Below are positions 41,935 to 62,817 of a DNA stretch of 64,000 nucleotides, in pieces. The stretch lies in sequence record NC_000866.4. The stretch is one strand, 5' to 3'. Both the position numbers and the translations under genes were made by a program. Under the pieces are notes generated by a model, which saw nothing but the letters and a program-made list of their open reading frames with translations, was not told the origin of the DNA and did not search any database. The DNA comes from Escherichia phage T4. How positions within the stretch are numbered: position 1 is the stretch's first letter; each line of letters starts with the position of its first letter.

Positions 41935-41995
41935 ATAGTTGTATAGTACCATAAAGCTTTATGCTTGTAAACCGTTTTGTGAAAAAATTTTTAAA
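41935..41995 (-). promoter_or_regulatory. T4-type early promoter with A/T-rich upstream element
   Basis: minus strand AAAATTTTTTCACAAAACGGTTTACA, 17 nt, TACTATAC. Confidence 0.6.
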
Positions 41996-58732: not shown

Positions 58733-58795
58733 ATAGTTGTATAGTACCACAGTATGCTTTGGTTGTAAACCGTTTTGTGAAAAAATTTTTAAAAT
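58733..58795 (-). promoter_or_regulatory. T4-type early promoter upstream of motA
   Basis: minus strand AAAATTTTTTCACAAAACGGTTTACA, 17 nt, TACTATAC; near-identical to the element at 41935-41995. Confidence 0.6.
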
Positions 58796-58976: not shown

Positions 58977-60301
58977 TTGATTTCCTCTAAATCTTTGGTG
59001 TATTCAGTAACTACATCAGTAGTTTTCCAATATTCGTTTTCTTCTTTTTTAGCTTTAGCTTCTTCAGCAAGTTTCTTTGCTTCATCGGAAGTCATATGAA
59101 AAATATTCATTCCAACTAGTTTATCAACATAAGAAGAATACATATCGATTTTCGAAAGTTCTTCGGTCAGTTCTTTACGAGTTTTACCCTGTACAACAAT
59201 TTCACCTGAAATTACTTTCTTAATGAAATGTGCTTTGGCAAAGGCTAAACGAAAAGCTGACTCAGTTTCTTTAATTTTGTTATCAATTCGTTTTTGGACA
59301 TAAGTTTTACGAACTTCAACAAAGTCTTTAATTAAATCAACTACGTTATCGTAAACTTGCAGCTTTCCTTTCTCATTAATAACCGTAATATTCTGGGAAC
59401 GACGCTCAATCAGTCCGAAGTCTTTCATAATTTTTGCATGGCGTTCTTCTTCGTTATCGCTCAAAGAATATTCTTTGCGGAATTTAACTTTGAAGCCAAA
59501 ACCATGCTCACCACAAGCATCATCCCATGTAATGAAGCCTTTATTTTCAAGTGGGTCTAAGATTTTACTCACATAAGTTTCACGATCATACTTATACGGA
59601 ATCTCAGTGATATGCATTTGAGTTCGTGAAGTAAACTTATATGTTCCACGAATTTCATATTGCCCATCAATTTCAACGACTTCACCACGAAATTCTGGGA
59701 ATTCTACTTTCGGTTTAGTTACTTTCTTTCCTTGAAGAGCTTGCAGTACAGCTTTCTTGACAGAAGAAACACTATGAGGAAGAATGTAAGTTGCATAACC
59801 AGTTGCAATACCGGAAACGCCATTAAGAAGAACAGTAGGAATAATAGGCAAATAGAAAGCAGGCGGAATGTGTTCTTTATCTTGATGTACCGGAGCATAT
59901 TCAGTATCTTTATATACGTTATAGAAATTTTTACTTACACGAGCAAAAATATAACGACTTGCCGCTGCCTTTTGGACAGTACGAGAACCAAAGTTTCCTT
60001 GACCATCTAACAGAGGAAAGTTATTATTCCAAGTATTAGCCATCAAAGCACCTGCGTCTTGTGCAGAGTTTTCACCATGATGATATCCAAGGTCCGCTAC
60101 ACCACCTGCAATAGAAGCGAGTTTGTGAAACTTATCTTTATTTCCTCGTGCCAAATCAAGAGCTCGAGCAATAACAAATCGTTGAACTGGCTTAAATCCA
60201 TCAATCATATTTGGGATAGCACGATTTTCAACCGTGTACATAGCATAAGCCAATGCTTCATTATCAATGATACTTTTTAAATCGCGATTATTCAGTTGCA
60301 T
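58973..60301 (-). CDS. 52: DNA topoisomerase II medium subunit gp52
   Basis: 442-aa ORF with GyrA-like active-site region; recognised as T4 gp52. Confidence 0.93.
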   Translation of the reverse strand: MQLNNRDLKSIIDNEALAYAMYTVENRAIPNMIDGFKPVQRFVIARALDLARGNKDKFHKLASIAGGVADLGYHHGENSAQDAGALMANTWNNNFPLLDGQGNFGSRTVQKAAASRYIFARVSKNFYNVYKDTEYAPVHQDKEHIPPAFYLPIIPTVLLNGVSGIATGYATYILPHSVSSVKKAVLQALQGKKVTKPKVEFPEFRGEVVEIDGQYEIRGTYKFTSRTQMHITEIPYKYDRETYVSKILDPLENKGFITWDDACGEHGFGFKVKFRKEYSLSDNEEERHAKIMKDFGLIERRSQNITVINEKGKLQVYDNVVDLIKDFVEVRKTYVQKRIDNKIKETESAFRLAFAKAHFIKKVISGEIVVQGKTRKELTEELSKIDMYSSYVDKLVGMNIFHMTSDEAKKLAEEAKAKKEENEYWKTTDVVTEYTKDLEEIK

Positions 60302-60305
60302 AAAT

Positions 60306-60446
60306 TTACCATACTAGTGAATGTAGTGCCATAATAACATCAGAAATGAAAAGCACGACTTGAATTAATCCGAACATTACTCCGTAATATAGTGCTACCA
60401 ATAAAGCAGCAAGGGCTAATGAATAGCCCAAGATTTTCTTAATCAT
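60306..60446 (-). CDS. small hydrophobic peptide (52.1 position)
   Basis: 46-aa ORF MIKKILGYSLALAALLVALYYGVMFGLIQVVLFISDVIMALHSLVW. Confidence 0.4.
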   Translation of the reverse strand: MIKKILGYSLALAALLVALYYGVMFGLIQVVLFISDVIMALHSLVW

Positions 60447-60594
60447 TAGATAACAACACAAATGTTAAATATGCACACATACCCTGGGCTAAAGCTTGTG
60501 AAAACACACTGCTAGCATCGATACAGATAGTTAAAACACATGCTACTATCCAACAAATAAATGAAATAACTCCTAATAATTTTGCAATATTCAT
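60439..60594 (-). CDS. ac: small membrane protein, probably Ac (acridine sensitivity)
   Basis: 51-aa hydrophobic ORF MNIAKLLGVISFICWIVACVL...; size and position fit T4 ac. Confidence 0.5.
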   Translation of the reverse strand: MNIAKLLGVISFICWIVACVLTICIDASSVFSQALAQGMCAYLTFVLLSND

Positions 60595-60601
60595 ATTTTC
60601 C

Positions 60602-60682
60602 TCACTGGCGTCCGAAGACGCCTTTAGTTTTAAGATTGTTACGATAGAACTGCATCACGTGTTCGTTATGGAAATTACTCAT
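60602..60682 (-). CDS. stp: Stp peptide (suppressor of three-prime phosphatase; modulator of host EcoprrI/PrrC)
   Basis: 26-aa [29 protein letters not shown] matches the Stp peptide as recalled; ATG overlaps ndd stop by 1 nt. Confidence 0.85.
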
Positions 60683-61137
60683 TAATATGCCTGTAAAACA
60701 AATTTAAAGTTATCAGCCAACATACGGTTCATTTCTTCGAGTGTTTGATACTCAGAATGATGATTACGAGTAAACGCCAAAGCTAGCTGACCTTTTCCAA
60801 ATCCCGTCGTTAGAGGTTTCATCTTAGAAGCAGGCAGATAAAACACTGTGTATGGAACATTGTTATTTGCAATAGTACGCGCAAGTTGAGACCGGCGTTG
60901 ACGAATATGACTTAAAACCGCACTGAATCCTTGCTTAGAACGCTGATTACCTACATAAAATCGTGCAGATACGCATGGATTACTAAATGGACCACCGAGT
61001 TTACTCACTAAAAAGTAAAATCCAGGTTTAGATAAAATATCTTTATGCGGAGTTCCTAAAAACCATTCACCACCCTTGATTGTACCAATAACAGTAGCGC
61101 CTGCATCATTCAGATCAGTAACAGTCATATATTTCAT
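60682..61137 (-). CDS. ndd: Ndd nucleoid disruption protein
   Basis: 151 aa from [18 protein letters not shown]...; track ORF extends 16 codons upstream. Confidence 0.85.
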
Positions 61138-61197
61138 ATTAATTTCCTCTAAATTATTTTCTACTCCAAGGCCGCATGAATACACACGGCCATTAAA

Positions 61198-61413
61198 TTA
61201 CTCGTCGCAGTCGACGCTCAATTCCCAAAACTCTTCTACAGTATAAGTTTCAGTATCATTTTCAATACAGAAACGTTCATTACTATTATTTGCTAAAGTA
61301 GCATTAACTGTCATTTTTTCGCTAGTGCTCTTAAGAGGTGAAATACGAATTAACTGATCACCGTTATCTAAACAAAAAATTTCACCAACTTTTACATCTT
61401 TAAAACTTTTCAT
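61198..61413 (-). CDS. hypothetical protein (ndd.1 position)
   Basis: 71-aa ORF. Confidence 0.5.
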   Translation of the reverse strand: MKSFKDVKVGEIFCLDNGDQLIRISPLKSTSEKMTVNATLANNSNERFCIENDTETYTVEEFWELSVDCDE

Positions 61414-61421
61414 AATTCACC

Positions 61422-61529
61422 TCAAGGAGTATAAAATCCAAATGCAGTTGTTGACCATCCCATCCAATATGGAAAATTTACACCAATGTAAAACATAAGA
61501 ATATAAAACCAACCGCTCAGCAAATTCAT
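61422..61529 (-). CDS. small hydrophobic peptide (hand-read ORF)
   Basis: 35-aa ORF MNLLSGWFYILMFYIGVNFPYWMGW... Confidence 0.3.
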   Translation of the reverse strand: MNLLSGWFYILMFYIGVNFPYWMGWSTTAFGFYTP

Positions 61530-61732
61530 CATTTTACACCATTCCAAATTGTTTCAACCACGGATTTTAAACCATTTTGATGAATATCCATTCCTACTAC
61601 CGCCATCAAATAAATTCCAACTACAACTGAACCTAAGGCAAAAATCAGCATGAAAATGAATAAAGCCGGAAAAATATTATCGAAAAACCATTCAATAAAT
61701 GTAAAAGCACTGCGTTTACGTTCATATTTTCC

Positions 61733-61846
61733 TCACATAAATCCAAAGTAAACGTTTAATACATCAATCATTAAAACGATTGGGAATATACTCAAAACTA
61801 TTAGTATTATAACTACATTCCATATAGCTTTAATAATCTTTTTCAT
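61733..61846 (-). CDS. small membrane peptide
   Basis: 37 aa from ATG at 61846 (MKKIIKAIWNVVIILIVLSIFPIVLMIDVL...) with GGAGGA ribosome-binding site; longer track ORF would span the promoter. Confidence 0.45.
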   Translation of the reverse strand: MKKIIKAIWNVVIILIVLSIFPIVLMIDVLNVYFGFM

Positions 61847-61867
61847 TTTCTGTTCCTCCATAGTTGA

Positions 61868-61908
61868 TAGGGTAATAGTACCACGGAAGAACAGTCTTGT
61901 AAACAACT
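61868..61908 (-). promoter_or_regulatory. T4-type early promoter
   Basis: minus strand GTTTACA, spacer, TACTATTAC. Confidence 0.55.
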
Positions 61909-62147
61909 TTTTTAAAAATATTCGTAATAAATGTGAATACCAACTACTACCGCTGAAACCTGTGCAACCCACCACGCACAAGCAATAAGTACAGAATTCA
62001 AAATTTTCATAATAACCTCATTACAAAAGTAAATGTTAAACAAATTACTGGAATACTAATTAACCAAACAAAACACCACCATAATGAACTCATAGTTCAA
62101 TCTCAGCGATTTTCATTTTATTCTCCAAATCCGTATCAGTAGTTGAT

Positions 62148-62195
62148 AGTTGTATAGTACCACGGTCCTTGTGGTATGTAAACTGTTTTGTGAAA
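62148..62195 (-). promoter_or_regulatory. T4-type early promoter immediately downstream of denB
   Basis: minus strand CACAAAACAGTTTACA, spacer, TACTATAC; shares a 31-nt identical block with 58718-58748. Confidence 0.55.
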
Positions 62196-62199
62196 TTTT

Positions 62200-62757
62200 T
62201 TAAATGGAAAGATACCATCCGTTGTAGTTGCTTTTTCTTACAACTTTACGAAGGTCTTCTCTGTCACCGATGAACTTCGGAGTGTACTGGATGACACCTG
62301 GATGAATTTCTTTAGTGTTGAATATAATTATACAGTCAGCGACTTGATGATTTAGAATGGGCCCTAGATTTATTCCAGAACCATATGGATACTCTCCGCT
62401 GCATCCCGTTGTTACCGAAATCCAACGTGAGTCAGTTTGATGTGTCTTAACTTCTACACGAAGCCCGCAGTATTTTGGATGAGCCAATACATCCCATGCA
62501 TATGTGTACGGATCATCGACATCCTCTTGGCCTTTATTGACATATCCACTCAACCAATCTGCCACAAAAAACTCTGCGTACACAGCGATACGGCATCTTT
62601 CGATAACTTCTGCCTTATCTTGATTTGGGTTTTGTTTTAAAGAGTATCTTGCAGTATCAGCAATTTTGACCTTCATTTCACAGGTCAAGTCACTGTTCGA
62701 TAGGGTAAATGTCGGAATCTGAAATAGTCTCTGTAACCCAGGATTCGTTTTCTGCAT
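62200..62757 (-). CDS. denB: Endonuclease IV
   Basis: 185-aa ORF at the T4 denB position. Confidence 0.8.
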   Translation of the reverse strand: MQKTNPGLQRLFQIPTFTLSNSDLTCEMKVKIADTARYSLKQNPNQDKAEVIERCRIAVYAEFFVADWLSGYVNKGQEDVDDPYTYAWDVLAHPKYCGLRVEVKTHQTDSRWISVTTGCSGEYPYGSGINLGPILNHQVADCIIIFNTKEIHPGVIQYTPKFIGDREDLRKVVRKSNYNGWYLSI

Positions 62758-62817
62758 TTAAACTTTCCTTTATGTCGGAATCACCGATATTCATATAAAT
62801 CATAATTTCTCTTAAAA

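Follow-up and report, generated by a model that had tools for sequence, protein, structure and literature searches.

AcrZ, MgrB, MgtS and KdpF are bacterial inner-membrane peptides of 30–50 aa, each a single helix that binds a larger membrane protein. Phage T4 also makes small early envelope proteins, the exclusion proteins Imm and Sp; T4 exclusion is genetically attributed to imm and sp, which are located elsewhere in the genome. Nearer to the genes considered here is the membrane protein Ac, the expression of which sensitizes E. coli to acriflavine and ampicillin, an effect for which interference with AcrAB–TolC has been proposed (bioRxiv 10.1101/2025.06.30.662393). The T4 mutant sa-delta-9 abolishes phage-stimulated synthesis of phospholipid and phosphatidylglycerol, and this lipid phenotype has been mapped no more finely than to a 3.4-kb deletion, in which ndd, denB, ac and stp are lost as well (PMC6071114). 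Exchange of genes in the same region has been described in terms of PeSL cassettes (an early promoter plus a stem-loop), with the ndd.4/ndd.5 unit exchanged between T4 and phage PST (PMC4122927).

The small products of gene 52.1 and the ndd genes resemble Ac in belonging to the same early operon, in size, in their hydrophobic helix, in being dispensable and in being conserved in T-even phages. Ac influences efflux or the permeability of the host envelope and has a selectable phenotype; when compared with it by sequence, the small ndd and 52.1 products show no detectable relationship to Ac and fall into separate PHROGs. The likeness to AcrZ, MgrB, MgtS and KdpF would lie in the mode of action proposed for the T4 peptides and is a functional analogy only, with no homology found and with the T4 peptides being phage-encoded and early. 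Imm and Sp are likewise small, early, envelope-located and non-essential, but they belong to another locus, no match to their families was found and no exclusion phenotype is mapped to the 52–denB interval. As in PeSL cassettes, the content of the slot between a promoter and ndd.6 varies here, as judged from the genes and promoters, but the PeSL concept covers gene movement, not gene action.

The window analyzed comprises the final 64 kb of the phage T4 reference genome (NC_000866 coordinate = window coordinate + a constant offset of 104903). A run of very small hydrophobic ORFs between gene 52 and denB had been pointed out in a first-pass annotation, and this cluster was borne out as the T4 early genes 52.1 and ndd.2 to ndd.6. 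Every ORF named there is an annotated T4 gene on the minus strand of the gene 52–denB interval, which on the same strand also holds ac, stp, ndd and ndd.1, interleaved with the small hydrophobic genes (Table 1). The observation is already known, as the ORFs are present in the T4 annotation, in UniProt (entries P18922, P39244, P39245, P39249, P39247 and P39248, taken jointly for 52.1, ndd.2, ndd.2a/ndd.3, ndd.4, ndd.5 and ndd.6) and in PHROGs, with two in Pfam. The sequences are the same as those annotated, and only the start of ndd.2 and the bounds of ndd.5 had been read slightly differently. The 46-aa ORF at 60306–60446 and the 37-aa ORF at 61733–61846 coincide exactly with 52.1 and ndd.4, and the ORF of 27 or 28 aa is ndd.6, within the range given for it. 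The 35-aa ORF at 61422–61529 is real and corresponds to ndd.2, with the annotated start one ATG earlier, at 61532; the 32-aa ORF is likewise real, being ndd.5, but reaches 73 nt below the bound of 61985 assigned to it.

Table 1 Features of the gene 52–denB interval (window coordinates).
Feature	Position	Strand	Length	Description
gene 52.1	60306..60446	-	46 aa	One long hydrophobic helix; annotated in T4T
ac	60439..60594	-	51 aa	Acridine sensitivity/resistance locus; membrane protein; PHROG 2501
stp	60602..60682	-	26 aa	Annotated activator of host PrrC anticodon nuclease; Pfam PF08133, 75 bits
ndd	60682..61137	-	151 aa	Nucleoid disruption protein; context gene
ndd.1	61198..61413	-	71 aa	Soluble, acidic; context gene; PHROG 2183
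ndd.2	61422..61532	-	36 aa (35 from second ATG)	Aromatic-rich, uncharged, hydrophobic; PHROG 4135
True ndd.3	61529..61725	-	65 aa	MKRKRS...; one transmembrane helix; conserved C-terminal GLKSVVETIWNG tail
Missing base	61721			ndd.3 nucleotide 6; coding-strand G, plus-strand C; relative to re-sequenced T4 and relatives
ndd.4	61733..61846	-	37 aa	Basic N-terminus MKKIIK, then one transmembrane helix; PHROG 3098
T4 early-type promoter	61875..61904	-		ndd.5–ndd.4 gap; GTTTACA, 17 nt, TGGTACTAT
ndd.5	61912..62010	-	32 aa	Hydrophobic; GAGG Shine-Dalgarno site; PHROG 5011
ndd.6	62007..62093	-	28 aa	Hydrophobic; weak Shine-Dalgarno site; PHROG 8851
Mini-ORF MKIAEIEL	62090..62116	-	8 codons	GGAG Shine-Dalgarno site; aligned to FelixPlatter and FL23
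T4 early-type promoter	62154..62183	-		denB–ndd.6 gap; GTTTACA, 17 nt, TGGTACTAT

Direct alignment of the window with T4T (HM137666) and OL964745 revealed a single base difference over 60200–62800. A larger deletion relative to wild-type T4, suggested by a BLAST span of 3.6 kb for a 2.1-kb query, was rejected, as the excess is an unrelated second piece joined on and the alignment differs by 1 nt only. A scan of the interval against Rfam gave no non-coding RNA match at E ≤ 1.

It is nearly certain that the small hydrophobic ORFs are genuine, annotated, early genes of membrane type. Each gene has a PHROG family, with ndd.2, ndd.4, ndd.5 and ndd.6 matching over their full length (E from 6e-24 to 2e-17), and full-length intact orthologues were found in 10–15 of the 16 loci examined, depending on the gene. 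Orthologues of 52.1, ndd.3, ndd.4 and ndd.6 also occur in other genera. In distant genera, orthologues are retained at 55–60% identity. Substitutions in the annotated frames are mostly synonymous (pN/pS 0.01–0.50), compared to off-frame values that are mostly ≥0.9, with two at ~0.45–0.5 and two further not computable. Conservation of the reading frames in related phages, the lack of which had been named as a refutation, was confirmed in that the frames are intact and under purifying selection; the context genes ndd.1 and ac have pN/pS values of 0.12 and 0.26, respectively. It also holds that the ORFs are short genes of membrane-type peptides and lie in an early region, with conservation in hundreds of T4-like genomes and with early promoters and transcripts.

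Transmembrane character was judged by a stretch of ~19 residues with a mean Kyte–Doolittle value of at least 1.6. The best 19-residue means are 2.35 for 52.1, 2.71 for ndd.3, 3.06 for ndd.4, 2.17 for ndd.5, 2.33 for ndd.6 and 2.74 for ac. The transmembrane-like nature ascribed earlier to these peptides is supported for 52.1, ndd.4, ndd.5 and ndd.6 (2.2–3.1) and not for ndd.2, whose best mean of 1.30 is below the threshold. Stp is hydrophilic rather than hydrophobic (GRAVY −1.03). Taken by itself, hydrophobicity counts for little in this AT-rich genome, in which 12%–20% of the off-frame small ORFs of the window reach ≥2.0; 52.1 and ndd.2–ndd.6 stand above chance hydrophobic ORFs because of frame conservation and purifying selection. 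The N-termini of ndd.3 (MKRKRS) and ndd.4 are basic, and AlphaFold2 models of 52.1 and ndd.3 contain simple helices only. Each small hydrophobic gene is predicted to encode one long hydrophobic helix in a membrane-type product of 28–65 aa.

Gene 52.1 is present in 728 phage records. Residues 1–46 match positions 1–46 of Pfam DUF7396 with 81.1 bits (cut-off 27), and the full-length product matches PHROG 3595 (E = 1e-25). Its pN/pS is 0.24 in the annotated frame versus 0.96 and 1.34 in the off-frames, with 115 synonymous versus 90 nonsynonymous changes across genera, and its invariant residues include LYYG and VLFISD. The AlphaFold2 model is a helix at residues 2–45 with a pLDDT of 95.5. In every examined locus that carries 52.1, the gene adjoins the start of gene 52 (topoisomerase); this position directly upstream of gene 52 was used as a working criterion for the family and is not a published definition. 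There is an 8-nt overlap between the end of ac and the start of 52.1, whose stop is 4 nt ahead of the gene 52 start. Assignment of Ac as a bacteriocin by NCBIfam was rejected (14.8 bits versus a cut-off of 150), and no meaningful NCBIfam match was obtained in the set. Full-length ndd.2 (pN/pS 0.22) occurs only in Tequatrovirus relatives, with one partial match in PEi20.

A hydrophobic gene at 61529–61725, annotated as ndd.2a/ndd.3, had been missed in the first-pass annotation. In the window, a 1-nt gap splits this gene into 'ndd.3' (61645–61725, 26 aa) and 'ndd.2a' (61529–61651, 40 aa), the latter having no Shine-Dalgarno site in its upstream context. The segment 61680–61760 matches 491 phage records, 2 of which are in the ≥99% identity band, the one displayed being the original T4 fragment X75802.1; among the matches listed, all others span 82 nt versus the 81 nt of the query. 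With the base restored, the 65-aa product matches positions 4–57 of the 58 in Pfam DUF7248 (71.9 bits, above the family cut-off) and PHROG 2401. The locus belongs to these families, and the sequence in the window encodes no intact member of ~60–65 aa. In the 65-aa frame, 36 synonymous versus 2 nonsynonymous substitutions were counted; GLKS..W.G is invariant, the tail is conserved across genera, and the AlphaFold2 model has helices at residues 6–51 and 53–64. Judged from the alignments, the ndd.2a/ndd.3 split in the reference is most likely a 1-nt sequence error. The T4D table of the HIDEN-SEQ supplement carries an 82-nt 'ndd.3' (10.1101/2025.11.20.689424); the split has been carried into current data sets, so that screens score one gene as two.

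The reference annotates ndd.4 with 42 aa from 61861, and we favor the 37-aa form because of its GGAGG Shine-Dalgarno site and its orthologues. The gene is found in 594 phage records, including Dhakavirus, Gaprivervirus and Kanagawavirus at ~61% identity, and has a pN/pS of 0.37. ndd.5 was found in Tequatrovirus relatives only and has a pN/pS of 0.05, with 10 synonymous versus 2 nonsynonymous changes. As its product is annotated as an 'outer membrane protein', a lipobox of the pattern L-[ASTVI]-[GAS]-C was sought after a short signal peptide and with conservation among orthologues. The sequence L-I-A-C is present at residues 8–11, with LFAC in one orthologue; the h-region is only ~8 residues long and the 'mature' part is itself hydrophobic. 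With the tblastn threshold applied, ndd.6 (pN/pS 0.50) is found in 492 records, with diverged copies at 43–59% identity in Dhaka-, Mosig-, Gapriver- and Kanagawavirus.

Upstream of ndd.6, the mini-ORF MKIAEIEL represents the last eight codons of an 87-aa gene that is kept in close relatives and lost from T4. This stub probably serves as a coupling leader or translated spacer for ndd.6. A 42-aa ORF at 62090–62218 was rejected as an extra gene, since it covers the promoter and leader and, apart from the last eight codons, shows no conservation of its frame. Depending on the phage, the slot from the 62183 promoter to ndd.6 is empty or holds either the 87-aa gene or one of 68 aa.

An early-promoter-like element had been reported before each ORF. 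This was not borne out, as the interval has just two promoters of the T4 early type (GTTTAC, 17 nt, TGGTACTAT). Generic sigma-70-like matches are not enriched (12 observed versus 13.5 ± 3.8 in shuffled sequence), and a search of the interval for MotA-box and late promoter motifs found none. ORFs without a promoter of their own use translational coupling or a separate ribosome-binding site. A Shine-Dalgarno site is missing at several starts, which depend on coupling, and stop/start overlaps take the form of ATGA (ndd.5 start with ndd.6 stop, and ndd.6 start with the 8-codon stub), ATGATG (ndd.2 start with ndd.3 stop) and TAATGA (stp start with ndd stop). Leftward transcription in the first minutes of infection would proceed from the promoters at 62183–62154 and 61904–61875, together with upstream read-through, and the genes would be translated as tightly packed strings, some starts being coupled by stop/start overlap and others served by their own Shine-Dalgarno site.

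Published data agree on early transcription, as RNA-seq places all these genes in the 'early' class (PMC9697503 Table S2). In the accompanying time-resolved proteome, the Ndd and Ndd.1 proteins were detected early, and the products of 52.1, ac, stp and ndd.2–ndd.6 were undetected (Class_P = NA; PMC9697503 Table S2). This non-detection is weak negative evidence, because such small hydrophobic peptides make poor targets for tryptic mass spectrometry. No ribosome-profiling data for T4 were found in the literature searched. 52.1 through ndd.6 are scored 'Not Fit' in the CRISPRi-ART supplement (PMC11879866), and HIDEN-SEQ classifies all as 'Non-essential', with insertions at almost all sites (10.1101/2025.11.20.689424). 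Even with the whole interval deleted, sa-delta-9 retains a burst of ~50% of wild type (PMC6071114).

The explanation that we consider best overall, and fairly probable, is that of annotated early membrane genes with coupled expression and an action on the host membrane. How they would act is more tentative: by analogy, the peptides may be modulators of the host membrane, a mechanism to which we give somewhat less than even weight. Early in infection they would become inserted in the inner membrane of the host, where each would bind or perturb some part of the envelope, for example an efflux pump, a transporter, enzymes of lipid synthesis or a defense sensor bound to the membrane, with the neighboring Ac protein, which alters acridine handling, as the precedent for the model. 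The peptides would be singly dispensable, condition-specific accessories of host takeover or host range in a hyperplastic, cassette-swapping region. That the peptides modulate membrane proteins of the host, as proposed in the first-pass annotation, is plausible by analogy with Ac (bioRxiv 10.1101/2025.06.30.662393) and would also agree with the finding that phage-stimulated phospholipid synthesis is lost in sa-delta-9 (PMC6071114). The motifs LYYG and VLFISD of 52.1 and GLKS..W.G of ndd.3 exceed a purely hydrophobic requirement, which argues for specific interactions. Searches of Pfam, PHROG and NCBIfam placed 52.1 and ndd.2–ndd.6 in no characterized family besides their own uncharacterized ones. 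A bolder version, in which the cluster would act as a store of 'membrane decoys' with specific targets, each conserved peptide (52.1, ndd.3, ndd.4, ndd.6 and others) binding a different inner-membrane protein of the host and at least one redirecting phospholipid synthesis towards phosphatidylglycerol, is decidedly doubtful.

Counter-defense or host range, with each peptide countering a membrane-associated defense of some natural hosts as rIIA/rIIB do RexAB, is an unlikely alternative that overlaps the host-membrane explanation rather than excluding it. The genes are dispensable on laboratory E. coli yet under purifying selection; the neighbors rIIB, denB and stp are annotated with roles related to host defense; and the distribution is patchy, with ndd.2 and ndd.5 restricted to Tequatrovirus and cassettes swapped nearby. 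However, the main text of HIDEN-SEQ names no ndd gene among its anti-defense hits, and in the one comparison covered, that of the reference library with the library in the rnlA deletion, every one of these genes has q = 1 (10.1101/2025.11.20.689424).

It appears improbable that at least one peptide is the factor in the sa-delta-9 interval that sustains phospholipid synthesis and stimulates that of phosphatidylglycerol. The deletion extends from 52.1 through denB, and the stimulation is lost with it; the authors point to several predicted membrane proteins in the region and pose the responsible genes as a question; and their inference that the protein is made within 5 min (PMC6071114) agrees with early transcripts. 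The interval also includes ndd, denB, ac and stp, however, and mutants without dCTPase, EndoIV or Alc likewise fail to stimulate phosphatidylglycerol synthesis (PMC6071114), so that the lipid effect of sa-delta-9 may be indirect. Nor was any similarity to lipid enzymes or regulators found in PHROG, Pfam or NCBIfam.

Superinfection exclusion, one of the roles suggested at first for such peptides, would require that they block DNA injection by later T-even phages from the envelope. Early genes and membrane-type peptides suit that role, but it is very unlikely, given that T4 exclusion is already accounted for genetically by imm and sp and that no exclusion-protein family, Imm and Sp included, is among the Pfam, PHROG and NCBIfam hits. 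The review of sa-delta-9 describes no exclusion defect (PMC6071114). Finally, that the frames encode no functional proteins, being hydrophobic by chance in AT-rich DNA or of use only as translated spacers by which ribosomes move through the operon, is scarcely credible: equally hydrophobic off-frame ORFs, the lack of mass-spectrometric detection (PMC9697503) and the coupling-dependent starts without Shine-Dalgarno sites, the stub at 62090–62116 probably being such a spacer, would fit, but the synonymous excess of ndd.3, ndd.5 and 52.1 is absent in off-frames, and invariant non-hydrophobic motifs and the orthologues in distant genera speak against it.

The observation carries little weight as a discovery, since genome-wide work by RNA-seq, proteomics, CRISPRi and transposon screening already includes the genes. 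Its meaning for T4 is that seven conserved small membrane proteins in the best-studied phage escape standard proteomics and that a decades-old phenotype, phage-stimulated phosphatidylglycerol synthesis, maps to the 3.4-kb interval that holds these genes.

The small minus-strand ORFs between gene 52 and denB (60306-62100) are catalogued T4 genes that were already known. By megablast, positions 60200-62300 were approximately 100% identical to T4 and 90-99% identical to hundreds of T-even relatives. The minus-strand gene list of T4T (HM137666) reads 52, 52.1, ac, stp, ndd, ndd.1, ndd.2, ndd.3, ndd.4, ndd.5, ndd.6, denB, denB.1 and rIIB. Published NC_000866 numbering equals the window coordinate plus a constant 104903, so the window forms the final 64 kb of the T4 reference. 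All ORFs reported in the first-pass annotation exist, with small coordinate corrections. Its bounds for 52.1 and ndd.4 were exact and ndd.6 (given as ~27 aa) falls inside its range of 61985-62100, but ndd.2 had been started one ATG downstream (35 aa, 61422-61529) and ndd.5 (~32 aa, same range) extends well below the lower bound. The ORF called 'ac-like' is the ac gene, and stp was confirmed, its product being hydrophilic. For ndd.4, the 37-aa form is favored over the annotated one because a GGAGG site lies 8 nt ahead of its ATG and cross-genus alignments also fit 37 aa.

Features of the gene 52-denB interval, in window coordinates unless a locus is named; pN/pS values are for the annotated frame.
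Feature	Position	Strand	Product	pN/pS	Remark
Early-type promoter	62183-62154	-			between denB and ndd.6
MKIAEIEL stub	62090-62116	-	8 codons		ATGA coupling to ndd.6
ndd.6	62007-62093	-	28 aa	0.50	ATGA coupling to ndd.5
ndd.5	61912-62010	-	32 aa	0.05	
Early-type promoter	61904-61875	-			between ndd.5 and ndd.4
ndd.4	61733-61846	-	37 aa	0.37	42-aa form in reference
ndd.3, base restored	61529-61725	-	65 aa	0.01	stop overlaps ndd.2 start (ATGATG)
ndd.2	61422-61532	-	36 aa (annotated)	0.22	
Stem-loop, ndd.1-ndd gap	61138-61197	-			
ndd/stp		-			stop and start overlap (TAATGA)
ac		-		0.26	8-nt overlap with 52.1
52.1	60306-60446	-	46 aa	0.24	stop 4 nt from gene 52 start
Positions noted with the stub in two related phage loci	L004:4896-5159; L013:2729-2935				

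Conservation was assessed by tblastn in 16 related loci, from resequenced T4, other Tequatrovirus, Dhakavirus, Mosigvirus, Gaprivervirus, Kanagawavirus and a Klebsiella phage. Orthologues were intact, full-length and co-linear. Those of 52.1 occurred in all genera (56-100% identity), always adjoining gene 52. Orthologues of ndd.4 shared ~61% identity in Dhakavirus, Gaprivervirus and Kanagawavirus, and those of ndd.6 43-59% in these genera and Mosigvirus. The C-terminal part of ndd.3 was recognizable between genera, and ndd.2 and ndd.5 were confined to Tequatrovirus save for one partial match. In the complete phage collection, 728, 594 and 492 records matched 52.1, ndd.4 and ndd.6, respectively. 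Nei-Gojobori counts against T4 gave low pN/pS in the annotated frames, compared to mostly at least 0.9 off-frame (two at ~0.45-0.5, two not computable). Each product has a separate PHROG family, with Pfam matches for 52.1 (DUF7396) and ndd.3 (DUF7248); an Rfam search of the interval matched no family. The frames are thus conserved in relatives, and the ORFs are coding genes. In one locus, Shigella phage sb4 (PQ666542.1, ~1046-2860), in-frame stops interrupt ac, stp and ndd.6, gene 52 is split and denB is shortened; given that gene 52 is an essential gene, these look like errors of sequencing or assembly and not like genuine pseudogenes.

Alignment of 60200-62800 with T4T and a second T4 record revealed a single difference, a base absent from the window at ~61721, the sixth nucleotide of ndd.3. 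Restoring it fuses 'ndd.3' (26 aa) and 'ndd.2a' (40 aa, lacking a Shine-Dalgarno site) into one gene that matches DUF7248 and shows 36 synonymous versus 2 nonsynonymous changes. Among 491 phage records matching 61680-61760, two fall in the band of at least 99% identity, and X75802.1, the original T4 fragment, is the one of these among the matches listed; in the other matching records, re-sequenced T4 among them, the base appears to be present. The gap is most simply a reference-sequence error, probably originating in the X75802.1 deposit. The split persists in recent data sets, one of which tabulates an 82-nt 'ndd.3' (bioRxiv 10.1101/2025.11.20.689424 supplement).

An early promoter had been proposed ahead of each ORF. 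A search for the T4 early form (GTTTAC, 17-19 nt, TAnnnT) gave 13 sites in the 64 kb, each of them on the minus strand and only two within the interval. Generic sigma-70 matches were not enriched (12 compared to 13.5 +/- 3.8 in shuffles), and a motif search of the interval found no MotA-box or late promoter motifs. The genes are packed in strings in which several starts overlap or adjoin the stop before them, and good Shine-Dalgarno sites precede ndd.5, ndd.4, ndd.3, ndd.1, ndd and ac; individual early promoters are therefore not supported. The window's early promoters (62154-62183, 61875-61904, 58741-58770, 41943-41972 and others) are built on extended near-identical modules, comprising an A/T-rich upstream stretch, GTTTAC, TGGTACTAT and then (a/t)c(a/c)actatcaac, with 13/13 copies on the minus strand. 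In off-target tables of a CRISPRi study, guides for the imm.1 and nrdC.8 start regions are near-matches to ndd.6 and ndd.4. Escherichia phage vB_EcoT_BCU-2 (PV290051.1, 46.9 kb) has 84% identity to 61842-62205, the ndd.4-ndd.6 promoter/leader, beside a thioredoxin gene, which may reflect the repeated module or a partial T4-like assembly. Immediately 5' of the ndd ribosome-binding site is a GGCCG...CGGCC stem-loop (12-nt loop, no T-run after), which might act in RNA processing or stability.

Between the 62183 promoter and ndd.6, alignment showed an 87-aa gene in FelixPlatter, NiC89, PYps5T and EPIMAM01, with more distant homologues in Mosigvirus and Dhakavirus. T4 has lost this gene except for its last eight codons, MKIAEIEL, which directly follow the promoter's Shine-Dalgarno site. 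In FL23 and ECO78 this slot is occupied by an unrelated 68-aa gene and the stub is still present; it may be retained as a translational leader of ndd.6.

The products are hydrophobic, as described: best 19-residue Kyte-Doolittle means were 2.2-3.1, except for ndd.2 (1.30), an aromatic-rich, uncharged peptide. Because 12-20% of small off-frame ORFs lying inside long genes of AT-rich T4 score at least 2.0, hydrophobicity alone cannot separate these ORFs from chance. The predicted structure of 52.1 is a single unbroken helix (residues 2-45, pLDDT 95.5), with invariant LYYG, VLFISD and one C-terminal Trp. The 65-aa ndd.3 product has a basic N-terminus (MKRKRS), a long hydrophobic helix and a short C-terminal helix bearing an invariant GLKS..W.G motif; the positive-inside rule suggests an N-in, C-out orientation with the conserved tail periplasmic. 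The ndd.4 product combines a basic N-terminus (MKKIIK) with one hydrophobic helix, and those of ndd.5 and ndd.6 are each essentially one hydrophobic helix. Since conserved motifs go beyond plain hydrophobicity, these sequences argue for specific contacts over bulk membrane effects. Codons 8-11 of ndd.5 (61979-61990) encode a lipobox-like L-I-A-C close behind the N-terminus, after a very short segment, and this may be the source of an old 'outer membrane protein' label. A lipoprotein is doubtful, as the motif is LFAC in one orthologue and the rest of the peptide is hydrophobic.

Time-resolved RNA-seq and proteomics recorded early transcripts for 52.1, ac, stp and ndd.2-ndd.6 with no protein detected, and Ndd and Ndd.1 as detected early proteins (PMC9697503 Table S2); hydrophobic peptides of 28-46 aa that offer few tryptic sites would be expected to escape detection. 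By CRISPRi-ART, 52.1 to ndd.6 were all 'Not Fit' and gene 52 'Fit' (PMC11879866 supplement), and HIDEN-SEQ transposon mapping, which placed insertions at almost all sites of 52.1 to ndd.6, scored these genes 'Non-essential' (bioRxiv 10.1101/2025.11.20.689424 supplement). Comeau et al. (PMC4122927) cite the ndd.4/ndd.5 pair as a cassette that T4 and phage PST have swapped by promoter/stem-loop recombination. E. coli expressing Ac was reported to be more sensitive to both acriflavine and ampicillin, and interference with AcrAB-TolC was proposed (2025 preprint, bioRxiv 10.1101/2025.06.30.662393).

The genes are conserved, early-transcribed and individually dispensable, and encode hydrophobic helical peptides. 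We propose that, in the first minutes of infection, the peptides would insert in the host inner membrane, where each may modulate a function of the host envelope, as seems to be the case for Ac. Two alternatives overlap with this host-envelope explanation: a counter-defence role and, as the more novel variant, control of lipid synthesis. With the classical sa-delta-9 deletion, which removes 52.1 through denB, yield was still about half that of wild type; phospholipid synthesis lost its phage-induced continuation, and phosphatidylglycerol synthesis was no longer stimulated (PMC6071114). Superinfection exclusion draws no specific support, and non-functional or spacer ORFs are contradicted by the substitution pattern. 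As envelope modulators, the peptides would be condition-specific host-takeover or host-range accessories, and with modest probability the cluster includes the lipid-synthesis factor of the sa-delta-9 interval or a group of peptides that bind specific host membrane proteins.
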